A DNA stretch of 63,038 nucleotides, the filler included, from Licmophora abbreviata (lineage: Eukaryota), in the NCBI GenBank assembly GCA_900291995.1. It is 11 parts of 11 records of this genome, joined end to end, with 100 filler letters (N's around TTAATTAATTAA, not from the genome) between each part and the next. Parts side by side here need not be neighbours in the genome. Positions count along the whole stretch, not along the records: positions 39,393 to 48,721 come from OLMU01000143.1; positions 48,822 to 51,476 come from OLMU01000144.1; 9 more parts are not named here. One strand, given 5' to 3'. A model generated the notes under the pieces. It saw only the letters and a list, made by a program, of their open reading frames with translations. It ran no database searches and was not told the origin of the DNA. Below are positions 2,662 through 52,036 of this stretch, one piece after another. Position 1 is the stretch's first letter. Each line of letters begins with the position of its first letter. Both the position numbers and the translations under genes were made by a program.

Positions 2662-4489
2662 ATGAGAAAGACGCTACTGTCTCCTCCACCGGCGTCGATC
2701 TTGTTGCATGCCTTACTGTCTGTCTCGCCCACAAGTAGCGGCGCTTCTTTTGCACATCAATTCCACACGGGATCTTCCAAACAGGTTCGTCTCAACATGG
2801 TTGAAAGTGCAAAACGTAAGTCCCTATGGATTGCCGACAATGAAGATCAGGCTAAGGAAGCTCGTAAGTTAGACGTTTGGCCTCTCGACGAGCACAACGC
2901 CGTCTTGCTCAACGAAGTACACCCTCGAGACTTCGACATGTCGGATGAACCTCATCCAGTCTACGATCTCATCGCCATTGGTGCTGGCGCTGGTGGTCTT
3001 GTATCTTCGAAGCAGGTAATTAAAGCGTTCTGTGGCATGTGTATGCGTATAGAGATTGTCGACACTTCTTATCCAAAGTTTTGCTCGTCTATATCTCATA
3101 ATTTAGGCTGCACGTCGCGGTGCTAAGAGTGCCTTGATCAGTGAACACTTGGCTGGCGGTGACTGCTTGAATGTCGGTTGTGTGCCGAGCAAGGCCCTGA
3201 TTCGTTCGGCACGGGCATTTAACGAGGTCAAGCGAGCCGCCGATTTCGGCGTCGTGTTACCCGATGGAGCTGCCCCGAAATTAGATTTTGGTGCCGTCAT
3301 GCGCCGTCTCCGCGAGCGTCGTTCCAAGATTGCTCCCGCGGATGGTCACAAAGGAACAAGGGGTGCTGGAGCGCACGTCTATCAGGGTCGTGGTGTCTTT
3401 ACCGGACCAAATACTCTTGAAGTGAATGGAAAGAGTTTGACCTTTCGAAAGGCCGTCATTTCGACGGGCGGACGCCCTGGAGTTCCAAACATTTCTGGAC
3501 TTGAGGATGCTCCCTACACGACGAATGAAGTGCTCTTCAATCTTGCAGTGCTTCCTCCGCGCATGGTTATTCTAGGCTCGGGTGTCATTGCGCTAGAAAT
3601 GGCCCAGGTCTTTGCTTCTTTCGGCTCGGACGTTACTGTGATTCAGCGCAAGAGTCGTCTCTTCGAGTCCAAGGGAGGAGACATCGAAGCGGCCGAGCTG
3701 TTGCAATCCACTTTGGAAGAAGACGGCGTGACGTTTCTGTCGAATGCATCAACCAAGGAAGTCGTTACCATACGCGAACGAGACGAATCGTTGGACTCGC
3801 TTCCGCTCATGAAGCTCATTGTAGGTGTGAGAGATGGGGCCGATGTCGAACTCGAATGTGAATGCCTGCTTGTAGCCACAGGACGCGTCCCCAACGTGGA
3901 AAGCATGGCACTGGAAGCAGCCGGGGTAGAATACGAGGTCGGAAAAGGGATCACAGTAAACGATTTGTCTCAGTCGGTAAGCAACCCAGACGTGTACGCT
4001 GTTGGTGACTGCGTGGCGGGAGTGCCTCGTCTCACTCACTACTCAGGAGAAAACGCCAAGGTTGTGGTGCAGAATGCGCTCTTCAACGACAGCTGGAAAC
4101 TGAGCAGCTTGGTCGTTCCTGCCGTCATGTACACGGAGCCCGAGTACGCGACTGTAGGCCTCTCGGGGGAGGGTCAAGCCGAAAAGGCCGGCGTCAAGGT
4201 TGACGTCTACCGTGCGGGATTGGAACACAACGACCGTGCGATCCTCGAGAATGACAATCGCGGTTTTTGCAAGATTCTTTGCAAAGAGGGCACGGACGAG
4301 ATTGTTGGTGCCACTATAGTGGCTGCACGGGCTGGTGAAATGGTGAATGAAATCTCACTTGCGATGAAGGCTGGCATTGGCTTGAAAGTAATTGGTAGGA
4401 ACATCCACTCGTATCCTACGACCGGCGAAGCTGTCATGGGATGTGGACTGCAGGCCATCAACAAGGAATGGGAACTGTTTACGGAATGA
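2662..4489 (+). CDS. Class I pyridine nucleotide-disulfide oxidoreductase, 'mercuric reductase-like' family, probable plastid presequence (intron ~3016-3107)
   Basis: YDLIAIGAGAGG FAD motif, GGDCLNVGCVPSK redox disulfide, GSGVIALE NAD(P)H motif, YAVGDC, HSYPTTGE. Hydrophobic N-terminus ends in GASF. Confidence 0.85.
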
Positions 4490-4562
4490 TCTGCTGCCTC
4501 TAGTGTTGCTGACAGCATCTTCATTTGTGGTTCGGTGAGCATGATGTGAATCTAGAATATGG

Positions 4563-7410
4563 TTATTTTCGTCGTCGCTTTGATTGTGAATGAATGGGTC
4601 TGCCACTGTTGTCATCACCTGTGGACGATGAGCCAGAGCCTCCACTGTGTTGAGAGAAGTGGAAGCGGCCATAGTGATCCATTTCCACCCTTCCTGGCGT
4701 AGCTTGCTGGTGGCGCTCGCGAGGGTGCTCCATCTGATGCCATTCAGCGGCGACGCCGTTTTGCTGCCCCACGAATTCCCGCGCCTTCCGTCGTTGGTCG
4801 GGTGTCATACGATTCTCCATTCCGTAGAGAGACAAGATTTGGTACTGAAAGCAGAGAAATTCGAGATCAGACTGCAAGGAGAAGTCCATTGTCATTGGAT
4901 CACAGTACATGATGTTATGAACGTCAGGGACGTTGCCATCGAATCCGCCATAAGCGAAGGCCGTGCACTCCATAATGCGAAGTACAGCAACGGCATCCTC
5001 CAATTGAACAACGTTGCGGTACAATAGTCGAGCATGAGCTTGAGAAAGTCTAATCATCGACTCCAGGAAGCGAACCGTGACGGGAATGGTAGAGCTCTCG
5101 GCCATACGAACGCGTTCGTAGTGACGCTCTAAAAGAGTCGCCGCGTCGTCGCTCATGGCCGGACTGAAGCGATCTTTGACTAACGCAATGTAGGCACGCA
5201 GTTTTTCCATGCTCCATGGTGTCGTCTCGAGTGGGCTTCCATCCTCCGTCGTGTCGAGCCCAGCTCCCTAAAGAACACATTCGGTCAGACGGTAATGAGA
5301 ATAGCTTGCCAACATCATATGTAAAGAGCTGTGAAAGATTCAACCTGAATTGGCTTACCTGGATAGCTCGATTCAGAAGGTACGTCGTGATGTTTGCATC
5401 GCGTTCTGCGTCCGACGAGTCGACAAGCTTGAAAATAATGTCGAATCGCGAAAGAAGAGGGGTTCCCAGACCAGTGTTGCGAGAAAGGCTGGCATGATTG
5501 TCGTACAGACAGTCACGGGGGTTCATGACTGCAATAATGGTGGCACGGCAGTTCAGCTTGCAGACGATTCCAGCTTTTGCGATCGAAAGTGTCTGCTGCT
5601 CCATGGCTTCGTGGATGGTCGTTCGATCTTGCTCTTGTATGCACCCGAACTCGTCGATACAGCAGACTCCCTTGTCCGCAAGGACGAGAGCACCAGCCTC
5701 CAAAACGAACTCTTTGCCACTGCCCTCCCGAACGGCAGCGCAAGTTAGACCTGCCGAGGTTGTACCGACCCCGGTCGTCAGAACAGAGCGAGGACAAAGC
5801 GTTGCAGCAAAACGTAGAAACTGAGACTTGCCCGTTCCTGGGTCTGTATTTCAAAAGAGGTAAGCAGCGTCGATATAGCAAGGCATTCGAGTACTAAACA
5901 ACGTGACAACTCACCTCCGACGAGCAGCAGGTGCGACTGGTCCCGGCGACGTGTCTGGACCGTCGCTTGTCGATGAGTTTTGCGCAGTTGTGACAGTCCT
6001 CGTGCACCCTCGTAGTTGCAAGTCGACTTGTTATCTACACATCTATTGTTCGCAATGTGGAACGGGACGGGCTCGTCATCGTCGCTATCGTTTCCATCCG
6101 ATGCGGCATGGGATGCTTCGCTTGGTCGTCGTGTGGCTGTATTGTTGGGGTCCTCATTCTCTTGGTGCTGCTGATAGGAGTCGGACGACACACCACCAAT
6201 CAGCGTTATCAGCAATGCCAGCTTGATCATAGACATGCCATACAGCTTGGGACATACAGCCTTGCAAATAAAGTCTCGCGCGGCAATGGGATTCTCCAGA
6301 TGGTGGGGGTCGTTCCAGTAGTCATCAAATTCCAGTCGAAGCTTGTCCATGTCGCCCAGTGCGGTTGTATCCCCACTCTCCCACCCCGAAGCCCCTTTTT
6401 CTTGCAAAACACGAATCGAATGAGCCTTAAGCGCCATTCCAACATTGCAGTCAACTTCTGGAATGCACGCCTGATGCCACTGCGCGAGGAGCGATCCTAC
6501 CAACACAATTTCGTCGCCCGGTTGACATTTCTCGACAAGATCGTGCTGCAGCTTGATGAGTAGCGATCGAGGTATATGACCTACTCCAATGCGAGATGCC
6601 GCTTCTTGAATTTTGATTTCCTGATAGTCCGTATGTACCGAAGCGATATGTTTCAACTTGTTACCTCGACATCGTTCGCTCCCCGACTTGAAAAGAGGAC
6701 ACGAGTCGGGCTTGGCCAGGGCGTTGTGGCGTTGCTCAAGGTCTGCGTACTCGACAAAGGTTTGACCACAGCCATTCTTTCCGGTGCACTCGTAGGTTCG
6801 GGCACTTTCTTACATTTGCACCGGCGAAGCACGTACTACTGTCCCCGACAATTGAACAATCTTACCGACATCACTGGCATCGACCGACGCCAGGGAGGTA
6901 ATACAGCAGGTCGGGGCCAAGTGTACCAGTCGCGCATGCACTCGCGTCATGGGCTGACCACCTTCTCCCTTGTCGCCCTTGACAGTGAGAGAAGCTTCGG
7001 AACGCACGTGGCTTCCTGGTTGCAGTTCCGATCGAATTGTTTGTTGCGCCAGGACAATTGCGTTTTCNNNNNNNNNNNNNNNNNNNNNNNNNNNNNNNNN
7101 NNNNNNNNNNNTTAATTAATTAANNNNNNNNNNNNNNNNNNNNNNNNNNNNNNNNNNNNNNNNNNNNATCGGCGTGCAGCAAGTCGAACATGTTGATTTC
7201 GAGCGGGTAGTCCCGTGTAGTGGAGCTCTGTGCTGCCAACAGGGTCTGCAGGGAGGCCCGGCATGTGTCAGTTCGCAAGAGGTGTCGTAGAAATCGCTGC
7301 TCGACTTCCGTCGGGGGACCAAGGTCCTTGTAGGACGCTCGTTGCAACCGCTCTGCGGACCAGTTGTGTAGGTCTAGTGCAGAATCCGCTTCGTCTAGAT
7401 TCGGTTCCAT
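4563..7410 (-). CDS. MCM9: MCM8/9-family DNA helicase, most like MCM9 (multi-exon, spans assembly gap, in-frame TAA at 6810-6812)
   Basis: [23 protein letters not shown] Walker A split by an intron, [74 protein letters not shown]. Confidence 0.88.
7068..7167. other. Artificial assembly linker (N-TTAATTAATTAA-N, 100 nt). Same at 18324-18423, 21661-21760, 29146-29245, 34927-35026, 39293-39392, 48722-48821, 51477-51576, 55444-55543, 60899-60998
   Basis: Identical 100-nt blocks with stop codons in all six frames. Genes continue across several of them. Confidence 0.97.
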
Positions 7411-29265: not shown

Positions 29266-31656
29266 TCACTGTACTAGCATCGCAGCCACATCATTCGAAA
29301 GCAGTCTTGCGAAGAAGAATACGTCCGTCCAGTACTCATGCATCTGGAAGATATCACTCTTCTTTACCAGAATGCTTTGTTTGATTTTGGGAACGTCACT
29401 GACTGCCGTATGAACGTAGACCTCAGCGTCGCGATCCAGATGACCCGCTGTCTCAATCTCGAAGCTAGTGCACCATTTGATGGGGATCGACTTGTATTCA
29501 ACCTTCTTCCCTCGCAAACCTTGGACGTCGATTATCATCACACGGTGTGTAGTGTATACGTACATGTCTCGTCCTTGCCGATAGGCTCGTTCAACTCTCT
29601 CGTCGCTCAACAGGATAGCTGGCTCATTGTGTAGCTGGCTATCAACCACCGCTGCGTCTTCTTCCTCTGAGTTATCCGTAAGCCACGAAAGGAAGCTTCC
29701 TAGTCCGGCTGAATTCGTAGTTTCAATGGGCGACGCAGTGCTGCTAAAGTATCGGGCGGCATCTTCTTCGCTGCCTATCACAATGGCAGACAAGAACTTC
29801 TGGATGGCGATAATGTCCGCTTTGCCTTTGCGAAAGTCCATGGCAAACTTCTTAAGATCCCAGAGGTTTCGTGTGTAGATATCAACCTCAGAGTCCCGGT
29901 CCCAGCCTCCAGCTGACTCGGCTGAAAAGCCTCGAACGCTTGCGTACGGGATGCTGGTGTACGCAATCTTCTTTCCTGACCAGCCTTGAACGTCCATTTC
30001 TGTGCAAGTACGCGAGGCGCAAAAGTCAGTGTATTAGCTTGGATTTTCTACAATGTCAGACCTTCGCATTCCACTTACCCAAGATTCGCATGTTTGTAAA
30101 GAGCGTGATATCGCGACCAGATTTGAATGCCATGACAATATTCTCATTATCTAGAAGGATTGGGTTCGTAGTGTGGAGCTCCTGATTGAGTTCGGCCGGA
30201 TCAATCGCCCGCTGGTCATCGCCAATCTTTGACAAAAACTTCTCGAATCCTCGCTCTTCGGGCGACGTCATGATTGCATTCGGCGATATCTGAACGCTCG
30301 GCGTCCCCTGAAGGAGTCTCAGCGAGAGGTATTTCTTCAGGACCATAATGTCCACCAGATTCTTGTTGAAATCTAACTCCAGAGCTGACATTCCGGGCGT
30401 ATCAGGGTCATCTCCCTGGCCAGGGTCGAACATCATGTCTGTCCACAACATGACTTCCGCATCTGTATCCATGTGCTTTCCGGCAGTCTTGACTCCAAAC
30501 CCGACGATCCGTTTCCAGGGGACACTTGTATACTCGATCTTCGCGCCTTTCCAGCCCTTTGGATCAATGTCGATCAGTCGCTTCGTTGTAAAAAGTGTTA
30601 AGTCACGCCGCCCTTTGAAGGCAAACTCGACGTGCTCGCTGCTTTGAAGAATAGGAATTTCAGAGTGATAATAGCGATCCATCTCCACTGCATCTAGAGG
30701 ACGCTGGTTGTCACGGAACCACCAACTTGTCTTGGGATCCATGTGGCCCTGACGACGATCAACGTCGGGAGCGGCCGACTTGTCTTCGCCCAAAATGCGA
30801 TTGGATAGGTACTTCTGGATCGCGATGACATTAGCCCTGCTCCTCCGAAAGTCTTGGCCAATTTTGCTCTTGAGAGGGATATTTGTGTAGATAGTCATTT
30901 CGGTGTCACGGTCCAAGTAAAACCAGCCGTTTCGACAGCGAATCCGCTGATGCTCCTCCACGTGAGAGAGAAGAATTCTACCTTTTTCCCCGTAAGACCT
31001 TTGACATCGATGATAAGCATCCGCTTGTTGGTGAAGACGGTGGAGTCGCGTCCAGCCTTGAATGCCATCTCGACTTTTTCGTCTTGGAGCAAGATAGGAT
31101 TCTCATTCTTGAGCCTCGATTCCACTTCGCTGGGTAGCAGCTGCTTCGCGTTGTCACCGAACCAGTCAATAAGATTACCGAGTTTACTCTGTTTGTTGGT
31201 CAGAGGGGGTGGAGTGCCTTCAACAAAGTCTTCAGTTCCAAGCTCATGAGCCCAGTCGACTTTGGAGTTCAAAAATTGTTGAACAGCAAAGATGTCGACT
31301 TGGCCTTTGGCGAAATCTATCGACAGTGTCGTGAATCCAGCGGCCCAAACGTGGAGCTCCACATCTCCGTCGATGAACTGTCCCGCCGTCTCCACCGAGA
31401 ATGCCTTGATTGACTTGTACGGAACGCTCAAGTAGTTGCGTCTCTTGCTACCGATGCCCTTTCCATCCTTGATGAGGATTCTGTGGGAGGTCAAATACGA
31501 CTTGTCCCGGCCAACGCCGCCTCGGCCCTTGAACGCCAGCTCGATTTGTTCCTTGGGATGCAGCAGGAGAGGATACTTTTCCCTGACCTTCGCTTCTTCC
31601 TCGGCTGCGTTAACTTGGAAGGCGTTGTCGCCCAGGAAAGATCCAAACACTGACAT
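29266..31656 (-). CDS. Protein of five tandem bacterial-type PH (bPH_1/PF08000-like) domains (intron 30000-30078; frameshift at ~30920)
   Basis: Five repeats of LL..E.(I/V)..AFK..RD...FT..R(I/L)..D..G..GKK..Y.SIP...I..F.VETAG..D.D.E...DF.....I..Q.(F/Y)L. Confidence 0.85.
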
Positions 31657-31939
31657 GGCAGGTGTTATTGCTCGTAGTTCTCTTTGTGCAGCAAGGGGCA
31701 AAGCTTCAATATGTTTGCTGTCGTTGTGGGTCGTGGCCTTCGCGTCGTCAGTCACAAGCGTGTTGATGTTTGCTGAGAGTGTCGCGACCCCTTCGACCAG
31801 GAATACATTATTTTCATGTGCTCCTGCCTTCGACTGAGTCGAGTCTAGTTCGTCCTTTTGGACTGCATCATAACTTTTTGGAACACAGCTCAATTGAGAG
31901 CACCCATCCCGTTGCAACCGTTGCTTGGCAGCAAAGAGA

Positions 31940-33434
31940 ATGAGCTCTTCAGAGTCAGATTCGGGCGATGAGAATGAGGAAGTTGAGGAAGTTCTGGAGG
32001 ACGAGCTGTACGATCACGATTGGCAAGACGAGAATCCTTCCGTGTTCTCGAGGCTTGCCATCTTCGGAGACTCTCCATGGTCCCTCTTGACGTCTTTCTC
32101 GATGATGTTCATCGCCATTGCCATCGTGTACGTCTTGGATGAGTCTCCGTTGCAAGAACAGGCGTCTTTTCCTCCCCTAGGCCCGCTTCCAAAGATCGAT
32201 CCTCCTCACATTTTCACTCTCAGTGTCCAAGTCGACGACGAAGCCACGCCATCGACGGAAATACGAAGGGCCTACGACAGGGACGGGGTTGTCTGTGTAC
32301 GAGGTCTCTTATCAGAAGACCAGCTACAACGACTGGACACTGCCTCGTCTATTTTGATTCAGGAACAACAAGAGCAAGACTCGCGGCGCCCACTCAAACG
32401 AACTGGCACTCAGTTCCACACGGTGCGACAAGGAACAGTCTTCCGAGCACATGATTCAGTGCGAGACCAGGATACTCCAGTGGCTGCTACCTTTCAAGAG
32501 ATTGCCTTACATTCGGCCGTTCCCCACTTTGCAGCTGCTCTCCTGCAGCTTCCAAGCGATGCTTCCAACAGCAACATGCGTTTGATGCGGTAAGGAATGG
32601 AAGGCGCTCTCAATTCGCCGTATAGCGTGTGTGCGAAGCGTCTTCATCTCTCACGACCTTCACCCCGTCTTGTTACATACCAGCGACATTTTCCTCGCCA
32701 AAGACGAAGAGCAGTATGTTTGTGGATGGCATGTAGACGATACCGGTTTCTGGCCTGCTACAGCAGAAGCATCTGGCGTGAACGCCTGGATAGCCATTGA
32801 CGACATGCCTCGTCGACGAGGCGGAGGCTTTGCTCTGGCAGTCGGATCGCATGTGGCACCATGGCATGACGAAGCTCATCATGTGACAGGATCAACCATG
32901 ACATTCCCGAAGGATGGATTTCGTGACGCAGCTGATATGGCAGCCAATCGAACGGGCTCTGGAACTTGCAATATCAGAACGGCGGCTCCTCACATACACA
33001 AGCGAATGGAGCAAACGAAACGGATCTACAATGTCAAACGTGGCGACGTGATCTTTCACACGCGCTGGCTCTTTCACCGGACAGTTCCCTTTGATAGAAA
33101 CGCAAGATCCAATGACACGAATGATGAAATTTATCGACGCTATTCGGTGCGATACGGTCCAGGTTCGTCTCGTATCCCTCCTGGATACGGACTCGAGCCG
33201 AGCGTACTATGGAACGAACAGAATGCCGGAAGAACGGCCGATGAGGTGGCCTTGCAAGATGGACCGTGGTATCCGCAATGTTGGCCGAGCACAGATGAGA
33301 AGGAGCTCGAACAGATTGGGGTTCTAATCGACGAGAGACTTCCTGTCGCCGAAGAGAGGCGGAAGGAAAGACGGCACGACATTCAAAAATATCTGGACAA
33401 AGTCGGAAAGGGAAGGCACAAGAGCCAGCACTAA
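31940..33434 (+). CDS. PhyH-family 2OG/Fe(II) dioxygenase with N-terminal TM (intron ~32590-32683)
   Basis: AYDRDGVVCVRGLLS, GWHVDD (HxD), VNAWIAIDD, GSH, GDVIFHTRWLFHRT, RRYSVRY. Confidence 0.85.
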
Positions 33435-44359: not shown

Positions 44360-46049
44360 TTAATATTCTACAATAGAGCTCAAGGTCGTCTCGTTGAGAT
44401 CGTCCCAGTCCATTTTTCTTATTTTGCCAACCAGGCGCGACATTCGTTCCATGGCGATTTCTAACACCTCAGGAGATACCCAAGCGTAACAGATACGAAA
44501 CATGCCTGGTGTGCGCTCCCGTTGACTCTCGCCAGGCGTCAACACAATACGAGCATGGTTCACCATGAGATCGCTCAGTCTGGCCTCTCCTTCAAAACTC
44601 TTGGCAGGGAGGAGCGACGAAAAGTCCACGTAGATGAAGATTCCCGCCTCTGCTGGTATAAAGGGGATGACCATTTCTTCCAGTTTAGAGACACAAACAT
44701 TGTAGCCCGTCCTCAATCGGGTTCTGGCGGTATCCAAGAAAGCATCAACCCACGGGTCGTCTGTAAGCATCTCAGCGACTGCCATCTGAATCGGGTTGCT
44801 AACACCACTAAAGATACTCAGATTTCCGAGCGCCTCCAGGAACTCTTGGTTCTGCGAATAAATCAAACCAACTCGGAAGCCACTGGCACCGAAATCCTTC
44901 GACAAGGCCCACAGCATGTGGACGTCATTGCCGAGATCGTTTTCAAGGACACGGACAACCGACTTGAAGCCGTGGTCTTGCTGCTGTTGGTATGGCAAAG
45001 GGGTTGTGAGCGCGAAGCGAGAGGTTTGAGATGAGACTAAGAGCAGAGAGAAGCTCTATCTCTCAAAAGACATACCTGGTGGGTTGAAAGAGCATAGATC
45101 TCGTCGACAACTGTGTGCAAGCTGCGCTTGCGAGCCCATCGGACTGCTCCTTCAATTACTCCGGGTCGATAGATAGTACCAAGAGGATTGTTGGGATTAC
45201 ACAGTAAGAGAAATTTGACTTTGAATCCTTGCTGCAAATTGAGCCGACGAACAAAGGAACGTGAGCTCTACTATGCGCACACGCTTTCAGCCGCTGAACG
45301 CCTTATGACACCCTTACCGAGGAGGCCTGAAGATAGGCCATATCTAGCTCGTTCTCAGTGGGCCCCATCGCTGCATTTGCCATATAGCAAGGAAACGGTT
45401 TGATGCCTGCCATGACGTTCATATCATTTTCAAAGGCAGCGTAGTATGGAGCAGGAATAATACATGCTTCCCTTTCTTCTCCAAGAATAAAAAAGAGATA
45501 GTTCAACAGAGCTGCGCACCCAGACCCGATCGCCACATTTTCCATCTTGACATGCTGCAGTGCTTGCTGGGGAGTAATCGAAAGAGCTTCAGGAAACAGA
45601 AAGTGTCTTGCGAGAAAATAGGCCGCCGCCTGTCTTGCCATAGGCAAGCCAAGAAACGAGTTATACCCATAGACTGTCGGATCAGAGAAGGCAGCCGATG
45701 CTGTTTCAGGGTCAGTCAATCGTTCCGCGATGAGATCAGTCACGAGCTTATTTTCGGCAACGCAAAGAGCAATGTGCCCTCCTGGATTTTCCCGAGGATG
45801 ACAAGGATCTTGTAGACACTTGAAGAAGCTCGAAATGTAAGGAATAGGAGGAGACAAGGCTGCGACGCCACGTGTACCAATGGCCAAGTGATCACCGTCG
45901 CGTTGGATATGACTTCTTCGCCCCTCCGGGTTTGCTCTGGCACCCAACAACGCGTCTTTTCTCTTCTGACGCCGTCGGAACCATGAAGCAGTGACAATGA
46001 ACAATGCAGCCGCCACGCTGGGGGAGAAAACGTCCTGATCGTCGGACAT
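44360..46049 (-). CDS. ACC-synthase-like PLP-dependent class I/II aminotransferase (3 exons)
   Basis: IALCVAENKL, PAPYYAAF, LCNPNNPLG, VVDEIYALS, WALSKDFGASGFRVG (PLP lysine), PGMFRICYA. Confidence 0.88.
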
Positions 46050-46477
46050 GGTGGACACAGGATGAACGACGCGTCGCGATCTTTGATTTTGGAACACGAA
46101 TTTTTAATTTTTCATACCTATCCCAAGAAACACTTTGCTTTCATAAGGATTTGCACACTGTACAAATATACGTAATTTCTTTCGTATAATTCCAATTTGG
46201 AATCGTAAGGATAATGGGCGCGCAATACTTATACGGAACTGAAGAAAATATAGGGTACCCGCCGGAGATACGATCCTTTTTCTTCTCCTGTGACGCGCTG
46301 TGATGAGAACTCTGTAATCAACATCCCGCCGCCGTCTCCCGACGCCGTCTCTGCGTCTCTGCTGATGGTCTCTGGGCAGACCTTTCGATCCGTCAGCTTA
46401 GTTTCGGGCATGCCATGAGAGCAAAGTGAACATTGGCATCGACTTCTGGAAGTAGGTTTTTCGAGGAGCTGGATAAT

Positions 46478-49400
46478 ATGTCTGGAAGACTTTCGAACCT
46501 GATTTCAACAAGATTGAATTTGACCCCTCAGGAAGACAATATAACTTCCAGCGTCGCTTCGCGGCGTCATTCTGTAGGACCTGATGATGAGGAGGAAAGC
46601 AGAGAGGAAATCCCGGCGTCTAACGGCGCACAGTGGGGTGGTCAAGGCAAAATCATGGTGAGAATAGAGATGTACTATTACCTTTTCCATTTCCCAACTA
46701 CTTCCTGAATCTCAATTGGCGTGACCAACTCCCTACTGTGTCGAACCACCCGGGAAAGGCTCTCCCACGAACCAAAGCAGGGAGCACGAAAGAATTGCTA
46801 AGGATGGATCGCTTTAAGACGCGCCTCAGACGTGGGTCGACACTAGCGCAACAGGTCACAATCCCTTACAGGCGAGGACGTAGACACGACGCTCTTTTGT
46901 CTCGGCAGGTCCAGTCGACCCACTCCTACGCAAAATTGATGCTGAACACCTTTGTCGTTTACTTTATAGCGGTGACAATGTCTACCCTTGTTCTCCAGGT
47001 GTTTAACATTTATCAGGATAAGGTCACGGACGAGCAATGTATTATCGGCTATGAGTATGAATCGACGTTCAGTAAGTCATATCGACGACCATGTGATCTC
47101 CCCACTTCATCATCGCGTCTGCGCTAAGCACCTGCCCACAACACGTCACGCAGATATACACAACTTTAGTATAGTCTTCGAGCTATCATGGACAACATTC
47201 TCTACCGTCGTAAGTCATTTTCCTTGACCTCAGTACTTTGTCTGTGTTGTCGTTGCGGATGCCGACTTGTCTGACATATCTACGCCTTGTGTTGCAGGGC
47301 TACGGAGCGACAGCGCTCACGCCCGCGGTGAGTCACTAAACTACTCTTTGTATATTCCGGTGATTGGCTTTAGCAATGTGGCCTCTGACAGTGCCATGCC
47401 CGTTTGCTTGCTTCAGTCGGCGTGCAGGGCATTGAGAACTCTCCTTTGTATCCAAGCATTCTTAGGAGTCATATATGCAGGCTTTTGTGCTGCAATCCTG
47501 TTTTCGAAGATATCGAGACTCCTCTCATACGCCCAGGTGACCTTTGCAAGTTCAATTTGCCTTCCGTTTGGTGAGAATGTGCCATCCTTGGGACCTATGA
47601 AGGGCGAGATCGTGAGTTCAAGACTGGTGTCGGGACATGAGCTCGATCATCCTTTCGTACACTGACGGTGTGTTTTAATTCCAGGGCGATTCGGCAATGG
47701 GCAACAAAACCTCGACCCCAGAGAAAGCCCACTTCCCGATTCTTCAGATGCGGGTCGTCAATGATGTATGTTTCAGTGATACGCTGCAGTGGATTGCGGC
47801 AGAAAGTATTTGGAACACTCACGACGATCGGACACACCTTTCCGTTTAACCGCAGAGGTCTCGTTTGGGAGGGAATATCATCAATGCTAGGATGAATTGC
47901 GTCGCTGTTAAAGTGACAGGCGCTCATTCTGGTGACGAAAGCGAAATTGAGGATAATCTCGTTCGTGTTGAAGGTGTCGGCGAATCAGAAGTGAAACCAT
48001 CGCAGAAGGAAAGAATCTACGAAGAGGTCGTCGTGGCTCCTGACACATATCCGTTCTTTGATCAAGGTGTCTGGTACTTTCACCATGTCCTAGACGCGCA
48101 GTCACCGCTTCTTGCTGATTCTGTTCGCGAGCGTATTGCAAGGGACAATGCATGGCCGACCGACCTCAACCAGCATGATAGCATTCGCGCGTGCCTTTCC
48201 GACGAAGTTGAAGAAATCGTGAGTTCGTTTTGCCAACGGGTATGGCATGATGCACGTTGCGTCAATTCTTACAAAACAGGGGAACCCACTGCCATAATCA
48301 TCTGATTTCGAATTCTCACAGGCAGTTTCCATTCAAGGCACATCGGACTTGACGGCAGACGAGGTGTACAGAACACAGGCTTACGTTCTGGATGATATTT
48401 TTGTTGGATGGAAGTTTGTCAACTTGAATTTTATACCCGATAATGGAGAGAAGCATCCCTCGGAGGCTCAGGATGATTTATCTTTGGTCAATGACATTGT
48501 AGAACAAGAGGGAGGTGGGAGTGAACCGATCGACTTGTCGACTCAAAACAGCCGTGGACGGGGACACTACTTTCGCCGTTCTGCCGAATTGTCAGAGCCT
48601 ATGAGTTTTCGTTTGCGCCGATGGCGGAGTGTCAGCACAAGAGTGCGGGGTTGGTTATGCTGTAGGATTACACGCGAGAAAATGCGACAATATCGAATTT
48701 CCATGCGGACGGACAGGATTTNNNNNNNNNNNNNNNNNNNNNNNNNNNNNNNNNNNNNNNNNNNNTTAATTAATTAANNNNNNNNNNNNNNNNNNNNNNN
48801 NNNNNNNNNNNNNNNNNNNNNTGCGACAATATCGAATTTCCATGCGGACGGACAGGATTTCGTTCAGAGTTGAATCTGGCTTCAGTCGCATCGAAGCCAT
48901 TGTTGTTCGGTGGACACTCTGGCATCACAGAACAACATTCCTCCGCTCAATCCTTGGGTCTCTCGCTCTGTACCTCGTTTTCACTTTGTTATTTGGTCTT
49001 TTCGTTGTTTCGGTCTCAAGGATAACTGAACTTGCAAGCGGGGTCGTGTGCGTTCCAAGTTGGGTGGACACAAGGGACGCCATCTCTCAGTTTTATATCG
49101 CATATGAGGTCTCCTGGACAACTTTCAGTACCGTCGTAAGTAGGTCTTGCCAGTACAAATGGGGTGTTAAGTCTCCACATTCGCTCAATTCAACTCTGTC
49201 ACGGTGCATGTAGGGGTGAGTCGTATCACACCAGAGGGCTGCATTGCATCGAGGTCGAATGCACTCATTGCGCAGTCTTTTGTTTTGCAACAGCTACGGA
49301 GTGGTTAGCCCAAGTATTGAGGAGGAGTGCGGCGGCCTGACATTCCTTCTTGCAGTTGAGGCTTTCGTAGGGGTATTATACACTGGTTTCTGTGGTGCAA

Positions 49401-50499
49401 TTATTTACGCCAAGCTAATGCGCGTACAGCGAAACGCCGACGTTACATTCTCAAGAGCTGTTTGTCTGCAGTACGGCATGGGGCTGAATTGTGCGAGGCT
49501 CAGAACGTTGCAAACAACACATGTAAGTTCTCCTTACTCTCCCAAGCATGCCAAAACGCCCAATGTGTTACAGCCCGACCAACTTCCGGTTCTTTTCCCC
49601 AACTGACAGAAAACTTCATCTCAGACACAGCACCAAGATATAACGTTCCCAGTTGTTGAGATGAGGGTAGTCCACAATGTAAGGCTATCATCCACCGCAC
49701 CATTGAATCTTTTTCCCTCGTTCTAACCCCTTGTCCGTTCTAGGAGTTAAACACAAGAGGGATCTACATCGATGACGCATCCATTAGCTGTGTGCTGACA
49801 AGCTTCCGCTACGTAAAGCGGGACGCACAGAAACGAACGCCGAGCGGAGCCAAGTCCCGGGATGAACTGCAGTATGAAGGAAGCGTTCTAGAAGCCGTTC
49901 GAACGGTCCAGAACCTGCAAGTGACTCCGGATAAGATGCGCCCATACTTTGCGCAAGGGCCATGGTCGTTCTTCCATGTCCTTGATGGCGATTCGCCGCT
50001 GCTCACATCAGACACGCGGAAGCGAATTCAAGAATGCGGCATTTGGCCGTCGGATATCGACAGCCCTGACGACATCCGGGCGACTTTATCACCCCATGTG
50101 CGGGAGTTGGTGCGTGTTCCCCTCATTTCTTGCACGAGCTGTTTATTTCGTCGACTGACAAGCTTACAGGTCGTTATGTTTAAAGGTACCTCGAACCTGA
50201 AGGCTGGTGTTGTCTTCAAGATCCATGTGTATAAGCCCGAGGTAAGTTTCGTATTGCTATACCCGTCATTCTCTGTTGCTTGCTGTTCAGTCCAAAAACT
50301 AAAACGCTGTTGCCGTTCCGAAAAAAATTAGGATCTATGTATAGGATGGAGATTCGCAGAGCTTTCGTGGAAGCCAAAGAAGAAAGGAGAATTTGCGGAC
50401 GATCGGCAGTCGAAAGGGATTGGAGGGGGTATCAAGTATGATTTATCTCTTGTCCATGACGTGGTTCCACAAAAGGGAGGGAATCACGAACCACTGTGA
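46478..50499 (+). CDS. Tandem two-unit inward-rectifier (Kir-like) K+ channel, many exons, spans a zero-length gap
   Basis: Two copies of M1 - Cys - SWTTFSTV|GYG - Cys - M2 - VTF - FP...MRVV - W.F.HVLD..SPLL - GTS - D...GW.F - DLSLV.D.V.Q.GG..EP. The 5' exon structure is uncertain. Confidence 0.8.
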
Positions 50500-50576: not shown

Positions 50577-52036
50577 CTACTGTGGCATCGCCAGCCCGTT
50601 GATAGATACCAACGTGATGTCGTATTGCAATGTCGCGTCCGGGGGTATTCCTCTACGCGGAACGCCTTTCGAGCCATACGCCAAGACAGGTGGAATGATC
50701 AAGCGCCGTCGCTCCCCCTGAAGAAACACCCAGAAGCGTGAGAGATATCCAGTCGAACATCACAAGCTTGCAACACACTCTCTGGACACGAGCGTAGACA
50801 CACTCACCACACACATTCCTTCGACTCCCGCGTCCCATCCGGGGGGAAACTGCCCGAAGGGCTGTTTTCCGAGTACAAAGAACAAGGAGACGTCGTTGCC
50901 CCGGCCAGGAATGCCTTGTCCATTGATCTTGATGGCCGACCCGTCAAAAACTGCACCCGTCTCAACGATCGTCCCCAGATATGATATTTCAAGCAAGTCG
51001 TCCGTTGTCGCACCGCGATTGCACATCTTGGGAGGAAGCAGCTGAGAAACGGTCAATTTCTGGTCGACCTGAGCAGATACAGCCCGGCCGGCCTTGACTG
51101 AGCCGTCGGCGTTTCGTTGTGTTGTGTCACCAGCAGGAGCGACCTGCGTCGTAACTTCTCCCGTCGATGACAAATCAGAAAGTCGTTCTTGAAAGACAGA
51201 AGGATCGCGAAAGCGCAGATCAATGGATCCTCCCTCTGGGGTGGACTTGACGGCTTGCAGAACTAGGATACCAACTCCCTCAGGATTGGTACGCTCGGCG
51301 CTCTTACCGTTGACGCTCACAACGACCCAGCCTTTCTGAATTCCTAATTTGGAAGCAGCCGAGCCCGGTGCGACAGACTTGACAAAGACACGAATGTTTG
51401 TTCGAAAGTCGACTTGCCCAAGCTCGATGCCAAGTCCTCCTCGGGATAGTTCAGACTTGGGTATCGATACCGTGAGNNNNNNNNNNNNNNNNNNNNNNNN
51501 NNNNNNNNNNNNNNNNNNNNTTAATTAATTAANNNNNNNNNNNNNNNNNNNNNNNNNNNNNNNNNNNNNNNNNNNNCAGACTTGGGTATCGATACCGTGA
51601 GCTCATCTGAAGCCGCAGTCTGTGACTGTGGAAGTGTCTTCCCTGTAGGCGATATCGACGTTGATGACGGAGAGTGAAGTCCTCGATAGGCAGAGTCTAC
51701 TGCAGTATTGGCGAAAGAGTCCGTTTCGTCCGTCACTGCGGCATGGGCAGCGGACACCTTCGCCAATCCAAAAAATGAGCCCACCCCTGAGAACCAGGCT
51801 CGCCTGTCATACAAGGAAACATCATTTACTCGACTCAAATCGTCTTCCGAATCGGTAACTTCAAGCGCGTTTTGATGTAACCTCCTGCGTAAAAAACATT
51901 GATCATGCGCAGAACGACGACACGCACCATCATGCTGACGCGTTCCTATTCCAGTAAACGCCTTGCAACCGATCAATCTCCCCACAGCTATCGAAAAGAC
52001 AATGAGACATAGAAATCCAGATGACCATGGCATCAT
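50577..52036 (-). CDS. Thylakoid-lumen-type PDZ + FKBP peptidyl-prolyl isomerase (spans zero-length gap; intron ~50718-50808)
   Basis: Signal + CKAF, RR..AHA motif, GLGIELG...VFVKSVAPGSAA...VSVNG (PDZ), ISYLG...VFD...FVLG...GWD.GVEGMCV|GERRRLIIPPVLAYG..G.....IPPDATLQYDI. Confidence 0.88.

Follow-up and report, generated by a model that had tools for sequence, protein, structure and literature searches.

This study examined a stretch of 63,038 nucleotides (nt) from the diatom Licmophora abbreviata (assembly GCA_900291995.1; this whole stretch is hereafter called the window), and found that positions 46478–50499 of its plus strand hold two complete units resembling inward-rectifier K+ (Kir) channels, joined in one reading frame. 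This is an in-frame DNA fusion of two intact Kir-type units, in a family whose examined relatives are single-unit proteins, and it is probably a real gene fusion, known here from DNA. We consider it likely that the locus is a nuclear gene in which two old, diverged Kir/KirBac-like paralogues are joined head to tail, and that it would encode one two-pore chain. The further proposal, that this chain is a natural two-pore Kir which assembles as a dimer with a fixed 1-2-1-2 order, and which has an origin independent of the two-pore-domain K+ (K2P) channels and stands near its precursor state, seems to us about evenly poised. The locus is composed of the following parts, where P0040 and P0063 are single-unit homologues.

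46478–46657, plus strand: putative exon 1, with 60 codons when counted from the first ATG; doubtful, as it requires an intron at 46658–46758
46759–48531, plus strand: unit 1, exons 2–8 in part, ending ...GGGSEPI at 48531 without a stop codon
48532–48570, plus strand: inter-unit linker DLSTQNSRGRGHY, 13 codons, in frame and stop-free
48571–48721, plus strand: left-contig part of the N-terminal cytoplasmic region of unit 2, FRRSAELSEPMSFRLRRW ... RQYRISMRTDRI, matched by BLASTP to P0040 and P0063 (residues ~81–135 of the single-unit relatives)
48722–48860, no strand: assembly artefact, consisting of the spacer 48722–48821 and the second copy of a 39-nt overlap, 48822–48860
48861–50499, plus strand: remainder of unit 2, to ...GGNHEPL and the TGA stop at 50497–50499
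48861–49135, 49214–49215, 49294–49522, 49625–49678, 49744–50109, 50170–50241 and 50332–50499, plus strand: exons of unit 2
49214–49215, plus strand: predicted 2-nt micro-exon GG, flanked by two 78-nt introns with consensus sites

Gene model, contig junction and point of fusion

The gene model was built from stop-to-stop frames and sequence, with the 39-nt overlap merged once. Its 15 exons give 2784 nt, corresponding to 927 codons and the TGA stop in one open frame, and its 13 introns, 60–103 nt in length, are GT-AG throughout. Each of the 13 donors begins with GTA or GTG, and position 5 is G in 12. The merged exon 8/9 (48322–48721 plus 48861–49135, 675 nt) contains the unit boundary; it has no GTRAG donor inside it and no stop in frame, the two remaining frames having five and nine. 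Collapsing the overlap, which a preliminary description of this DNA had proposed as a check, yields this single 927-codon frame once the introns are removed. The same description had placed the start at 46478. An ATG is present there, but its use depends on the intron at 46658–46758, which has a weak acceptor, and the ATG at 46804 may be the start instead. A contig of the public run X3 covers 46589–46843 unspliced; the type of this run is only a guess (RNA).

Ten N44-TTAATTAATTAA-N44 spacers occur in the window (e.g., 7068–7167, 48722–48821 and 51477–51576), each being a six-frame stop linker between joined contigs, and the window therefore consists of 11 contigs. The stop-rich gap at 48722–48821 is such a spacer, and it is therefore an artefact of concatenation. 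Across this spacer, the 39 nt at 48683–48721 are identical to those at 48822–48860, and RQYRISMRTDRI is the translation of both contig ends in the frames of the flanking exons. The claims of the preliminary description that the gap is spurious, that the sequence at 48683–48721 is repeated at 48822–48860 and that merging preserves the frame are thus borne out, with no in-frame stop in the merged exon.

An alternative to this joint holds that the two contigs are not neighbours, or that sequence is missing between them, and that the 39-mer, lying in a conserved QYRI... motif, is perhaps shared with a paralogue. The contig break does fall exactly in this conserved N-terminal motif of the family, and the letters of the bridging contigs past 48721 are unread. 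Nevertheless, we regard this alternative as very improbable. The match is exact and lies at consecutive contig ends, and overlapping ends were found at only two of the ten contig junctions (39 nt here and 25 nt at 51477–51576). The 39-mer occurs nowhere else in the whole window on either strand, and since the paralogues are only ~40% identical in protein, an exact 39-mer shared between them is unlikely. Moreover, an in-frame fusion of unit 1 with the N-terminal region of another unit is still evident from the left contig alone.

The fusion point itself was located by comparison with the single-unit relatives. Unit 1 ends with ...GGGSEPI, followed by 13 stop-free codons, after which homology to the N-terminal cytoplasmic segment (…QYRIPPR…) of these relatives begins. 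As only 13 codons lie between the two homology blocks, there is no room for a stop codon, untranslated regions and a promoter, and as the fusion point lies wholly inside the left contig, it is independent of the gap closure. P0040 and P0063 align colinearly from model residue ~490 onward in one block (E 3e-79 and 8e-65, respectively); this alignment crosses the contig junction, and its sole nearby gap lies inside the 39-nt overlap, not at the joint. Contigs of the runs X3 and X4 extend 78 nt and 102 nt past 48721, respectively, and because these letters are unread, the joint from left to right contig rests on the 39-nt overlap and the gap-free protein colinearity.

The preliminary description had seen an Arg-rich linker reading on into unit 2. 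The frame does read on, but most of this sequence (FRRSAELSEPMSFRLRRW...RQYRISMRTDRISF...) corresponds to the region ...PM.(L/S)RERLW...QYRIPP(R/K).EI.F... of the relatives, i.e., the conserved N-terminal cytoplasmic region of unit 2, and the true linker is 13 codons long. In the single-unit relatives, this region lies ~80–135 residues from their own start, and these proteins stop 1 to ~60 residues past the GGG.EP(L/I) motif. The observation that the end of unit 1 resembles that of unit 2 and yet has no stop also held, as the terminal motif is shared and the frame continues past 48531. The motif QYRIPP(R/K).E precedes M1, the first transmembrane helix, in the diatom Kir-like family (P0040, P0063, P0011, P0005); unit 2 carries QYRISMRTDRI (48685–48720), and unit 1 carries only the diverged form QQVTIPYRRGRR.

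Contigs of public runs were compared with the left contig part only, of which large parts are uncovered. The linker is covered by two 151-nt contigs, one of the marine-metagenome run X1 (48464–48614) and one of the metagenome run X4 (48424–48574), both with no differences, and a contig of X3, which comes from another study, agrees over 48551–48721, with no indels or variant letters in that stretch. Run X2 gave no contig matching the left contig part.

Two units of a divergent Kir/KirBac-type family

In unit 1, M1 lies at 46927–47013, the pore helix and TVGYG at 47162–47306, split by an intron between TV and GYG, and the second transmembrane helix, M2, at 47429–47521, followed by a cytoplasmic domain that runs to ...DLSLVNDIVEQEGGGSEPI at 48531. 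In unit 2, M1 lies at 48932–49015, the pore at 49091–49300 (pore helix and TV at 49091–49135) and M2 at 49337–49426, and the cytoplasmic domain terminates with DLSLVHDVVPQKGGNHEPL and the stop. Both units have ...SWTTFSTV-GYG between two hydrophobic helices, the filter of unit 2 requiring the predicted 2-nt exon, and in both, one Cys precedes the pore helix and another follows the filter. Their common C-terminal end reads DLSLV(N/H)D(I/V)V.Q.GG..EP(I/L), and M2 of unit 1 is separated from M1 of unit 2 by a cytoplasmic domain of ~250 residues. The gene model and the family profile therefore agree with the earlier claim of two complete Kir-like units, each with M1, pore helix, Cys pair, M2 and cytoplasmic domain.

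Between the two units, identity is 40% in the largest cytoplasmic exons and 44% in the M2 exons (52 residues, E 4e-17); BLASTP gave no match between the M1 exons. As they are only ~40% identical, the units are old duplicates and not an assembly repeat. Phase-0 introns stand at equivalent protein positions in both units, as read from the exon ends: STV/GYG in each, VND/RSR versus VHN/ELN, and EEI/AVS versus REL/VVM. Each unit keeps 51 of the 56 strongly conserved columns of the family, including the filter glycines and both pore-flanking Cys, and neither looks like a pseudogene.

For the assignment to a family, a profile of the two large cytoplasmic exons was searched against 1.84 billion representatives, which resulted in 234 proteins at E ≤ 1e-3 (best E 1e-21), 150 of which were listed and examined. 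Where cluster members carry names, they are proteins of the diatoms Grammatophora oceanica, Fragilaria crotonensis and Conticribra weissflogii. An alignment of 20 diatom homologues, A2, formed the basis of the family profile. Among these 20 homologues, Pfam listed Ion_trans_2 in 12 and no family at all in five; IRK_C (PF17655) was found at E ≤ 0.01 in nine, reaching its cut-off in two (22.9 and 23.0 versus 22.5), and IRK (PF01007) was listed in two, both below the cut-off. On ten single exons of the window gene, Pfam found no family at E ≤ 1. Hence, the proposed Pfam scan for two matches per chain gave nothing on single exons, but the family profile did pass twice: the hidden Markov model from A2 matches the locus at h111–476 (unit 1) and h74–469 (unit 2), and both units match profile positions 274–476.

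Against the PDB, the A2 profile gave KirBac3.1 as the best match (E 6.8e-14), followed by Kir2.2, Kir4.1, Kir7.1, GIRK2, KirBac1.1 and Kir6.x, with Kir/KirBac matches ranging to 1e-7. The profile has separate stretches on KirBac3.1, namely residues 80–150 (transmembrane) and 188–293 (cytoplasmic domain), and isolated Kir3 cytoplasmic-domain chains were also matched. Among the best 60 of 66 PDB matches (E ≤ 1), the 56 best are Kir or KirBac, and K2P chains are absent. An AlphaFold2 model of the homologue P0040, with a mean predicted local distance difference test (pLDDT) score of 69.5 and pLDDT < 50 at residues 1–88, contains an interfacial helix, M1, a pore helix, M2 and a beta-rich domain. 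With this model, only KirBac3.1 and Kir chains were among the Foldseek matches listed (E 1e-15 to 5e-12), in alignments of 377–478 columns of whole Kir chains at 12–19% identity.

An extracellular Cys pair around the pore loop is a hallmark of eukaryotic Kir channels. Both window units have Cys at the corresponding positions, C202 and C245 in the numbering of P0040, as do 18 of 18 relatives at the first position and 20 of 20 at the second. The assignment to Kir rests on remote homology, that is, on the profile against the PDB and on Foldseek with a homologue, and by these comparisons the family is a very divergent one of Kir/KirBac type, diatom-wide and mostly missed by Pfam.

Concerning the features that define the known classes, both units have the pore module with two transmembrane helices and the T-x-G-Y-G filter of the Kir superfamily, and the beta-rich cytoplasmic domain after M2 was found at the family level by the profile and the homologue model. 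Instead of the single pore of a Kir subunit, the frame has two pore modules and two cytoplasmic domains. As in the K2P and TPK channels, there are two pores per chain, with two pore passes on one strand in one frame-consistent model; the K2P feature of pore-module homology with no Kir-type cytoplasmic domain in between was not found.

The selectivity filter of the second pore

The preliminary description had read SWTTFSTV-GYG in both units. This is correct for unit 1, but in unit 2, GYG is obtained only via the 2-nt exon at 49214–49215. The GG exon lies between the two 78-nt introns, whose sites are GTAAGT...TAG and GTGAGT...CAG, and it restores both the frame and TVGYG in pore 2.

An alternative in-frame donor is present at 49144. 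If it is used and the 2-nt exon is skipped, the single chain would have TVVSSYG in place of TVGYG, and the channel would have two canonical and two degenerate filter strands with altered selectivity. Such splicing preserves the frame and needs no micro-exon, but we judge it quite improbable. The donor at 49144 reads GTCTTG, which is unlike all 13 donors of the model, with their GTA or GTG. In addition, TAG and GTGAGT border the GG precisely where the family has its conserved TV/GYG intron. Further, the TVVSSYG reading is at odds with G233 and G235, which are invariant in 20 of 20 relatives. It would be a variant of the main, two-pore reading, in which both filters are canonical.

The position of the TV/GYG intron appears to be conserved. 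In our own reading, the profile match breaks at position 173/174, between TV and GYG, in 19 of 80 metagenome loci of relatives, which suggests an old, widely shared phase-0 intron within the selectivity filter codons. The loci with this break are L008, L028, L041, L052, L053, L055, L056, L059, L063, L065–L068, L071, L076, L077, L079 and L080. At 49136–49293, the apparent GG exon stands at this conserved intron site, an arrangement that the gain of a further intron, 2 nt downstream of the old one, would produce. A duplicated intron as the origin of the micro-exon was rejected, as the two flanking introns are unlike each other (alignment score 0 versus −4.7 ± 3.5 for shuffles). No report of a diatom micro-exon was found in full-text literature searches, which left subscription journals uncovered.

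Distribution, rival readings and proposed architecture

The preliminary description had proposed a search for tandem orthologues in other diatoms, and this search came back empty. No two-unit protein, defined by two pore/cytoplasmic passes or two T[VIL]G[YF]G motifs, was found among the 150 listed of the 234 relatives; 43 of these 150 have one such motif, and the rest are fragments. In the metagenome scan with A2, 79 of the 80 loci hold one unit and one (L079) holds two separate genes, so that none of the 80, many of them short, has the fused form. L079 is a marine metagenome contig with family genes at 552–1755 and 4046–5222 on the same strand, ~2.3 kb apart, each with the TV/GYG intron and its own stop after ...GGG.EPL.... 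A first metagenome scan with the two-unit alignment A1 gave 588 pattern matches, none of which was confirmed, and a word-based protein search with exon 8 and exon 13 as queries gave no longer fused relatives, which is weak evidence. Full-text literature searches, leaving subscription journals and unseen supplements uncovered, found no natural tandem Kir, and the accessible parts of PMC2234077 and PMC12749960 do not mention one. This agrees with the preliminary description, whose author knew of no account of such an architecture, as no tandem form is present among the relatives examined or in the literature searched.

A quick maximum-likelihood tree was made from 35 near-full-length relatives and the two units. 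The two lie together in a clade of seven rows with support 96, and unit 2 groups with P0040, P0011 and P0006 (SH-like approximate likelihood ratio test, 92). The units as sisters were not rejected by the approximately unbiased test (p 0.217).

Several points weigh against a two-pore chain. The single transcript and protein are deduced from DNA alone, and a canonical pore 2 depends on an unusual 2-nt exon. The letters of the X3 and X4 contigs past 48721 are unread, leaving the joint to the overlap and the protein colinearity, and X1 and X4, which agree over the linker, may be source data of the window assembly. Ten single exons of the gene match no Pfam family, as described above. The fusion, known from one locus of a draft assembly, is a singleton among the 150 listed of 234 proteins and the 80 metagenome loci, and therefore no evolutionary conservation vouches for its function. 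Finally, the branches of the two units are long (1.78 and 1.48 versus a median of 0.79), which could come from relaxed constraint.

The last two points also favour another explanation, in which the DNA fusion is real and is not used as a two-pore channel. In that case, expression of unit 2 would start mainly at a promoter within the gene, with translation from an in-frame ATG (Met 500, 527 or 534 of the model), or the open reading frame (ORF) would be a recent, neutral or decaying product of a deletion. In-frame ATGs are indeed present in the N-terminal region of unit 2. However, unit 1 has no stop codon, and therefore any mRNA with unit 1 must read into unit 2. Both units keep their 51 of 56 conserved columns, and in P0040 and P0063 the Met that matches model residue 500 is conserved within the chain and is not a start. 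Considering these data, an unused fusion seems fairly unlikely to us, and a fused gene encoding one two-pore chain is the reading followed below.

The closest known systems are the single-unit diatom relatives, such as the clusters P0040 (Fragilaria crotonensis KAI2504751.1), P0011 (Grammatophora oceanica UniRef100_A0A7S1Y8I6) and P0145 (Conticribra weissflogii KAI7461187.1-type 'hypothetical protein'). They show 34–40% identity to each unit from the QYRIPP region through the cytoplasmic domain, and share the pore ...LSWTTFSTVGYG, the Cys pair and the end ...DIVPQ.GGG.EPL. Unlike the window gene, they have a disordered N-terminal extension of ~80–95 residues and their own stop 1–60 residues past EPL. 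The pair of genes in L079 is similar in having two same-strand units, each with the TV/GYG intron; in contrast to the window gene, the two are separate, ~2.3 kb apart, and have their own stops.

Among the structurally known channels, KirBac3.1, KirBac1.1, Kir2.2, Kir3.2, Kir4.1, Kir6.2 and Kir7.1 have the layout in common with the family, i.e., interfacial helix, M1, pore helix, filter, M2 and beta-rich domain. Known Kir channels are tetramers of one-pore subunits, and unlike them, the window frame has two pores per chain. Engineered Kir concatemers, which are tandem dimers or tetramers linked from the C-terminus to the next N-terminus, fix the stoichiometry and form working channels. Because such concatemers function, a natural tandem architecture is physically plausible; it differs from them in being a natural gene with two diverged units. 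In having two pore loops per chain, and so two chains per pore, the proposed channel would be like K2P, TPK and TOK1. K2P channels lack a Kir-type cytoplasmic domain behind each of their pore modules, unlike the window gene, which would therefore be an independent fusion. In the accessible part of PMC13715775 (2026, PNAS), K2P is the only natural tandem K+ channel class discussed, and the origin of the tandem layout is called unknown.

Based on these comparisons, we propose the following route. A tandem gene pair, as in L079, would be a plausible precursor; most likely, the stop codon of its first gene, the DNA between the genes and the N-terminal extension of the second gene, which is poorly conserved and disordered in the relatives, were then lost. 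This would yield one chain of ~850–930 residues from one mRNA, in the order N-terminal region, M1, pore 1, M2, cytoplasmic domain 1, 13-residue linker, N-terminal region 2, M1', pore 2, M2' and cytoplasmic domain 2. A K+ pore requires four pore loops, and therefore two such chains would form a pseudo-tetramer. With linked units lying adjacent, units 1 and 2 would alternate around the pore and the cytoplasmic ring, as in K2P channels and Kir concatemers, giving a K2P-like stoichiometry built of Kir-type modules. In this proposal, we infer the single transcript and protein, the use of the 2-nt exon, the dimer assembly, the alternating order, the K+ selectivity and any rectification. The preliminary description had proposed a two-pore Kir that dimerises with fixed A-B-A-B asymmetry, a reading which is supported in part, at the DNA level.

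The four pore loops of a K+ channel come either from four subunits with one pore each (Kir, Kv, KcsA) or from two subunits with two pores each (K2P, TPK, TOK). If the proposal is true, tandem-pore chains can arise again by the fusion of neighbouring paralogues, and the cytoplasmic gating ring would be two-fold, not four-fold, symmetric by construction. The gene would then be a natural counterpart of the concatemers built by hand by physiologists. It would also be a hint of heteromer formation among the single-unit paralogues of other diatoms.

Several neighbouring observations were made in the window. An aminotransferase-like gene (44360–46103, minus strand) stands head to head with the channel gene; the ~370 nt from the end of its upstream ORF to the ATG at 46478 would be a shared divergent promoter region. 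A minus-strand ORF (50760–51524) runs into the junction 51477–51576, which has the 25-nt overlap. Three long adjacent ORFs (29266–32013, minus strand) have repeated ...AFK.GRD...FT..R...ID..G..G.K.EY.S.P...I..F.VETAG... modules. A pyridine-nucleotide disulfide oxidoreductase gene lies at 3107–4489; it points to a diatom with no near-identical record in the collection searched, as no relative is closer than 77%, and its best named relatives are from Attheya, Cylindrotheca, Nitzschia, Seminavis and several MMETSP diatoms, at 66–77% identity.

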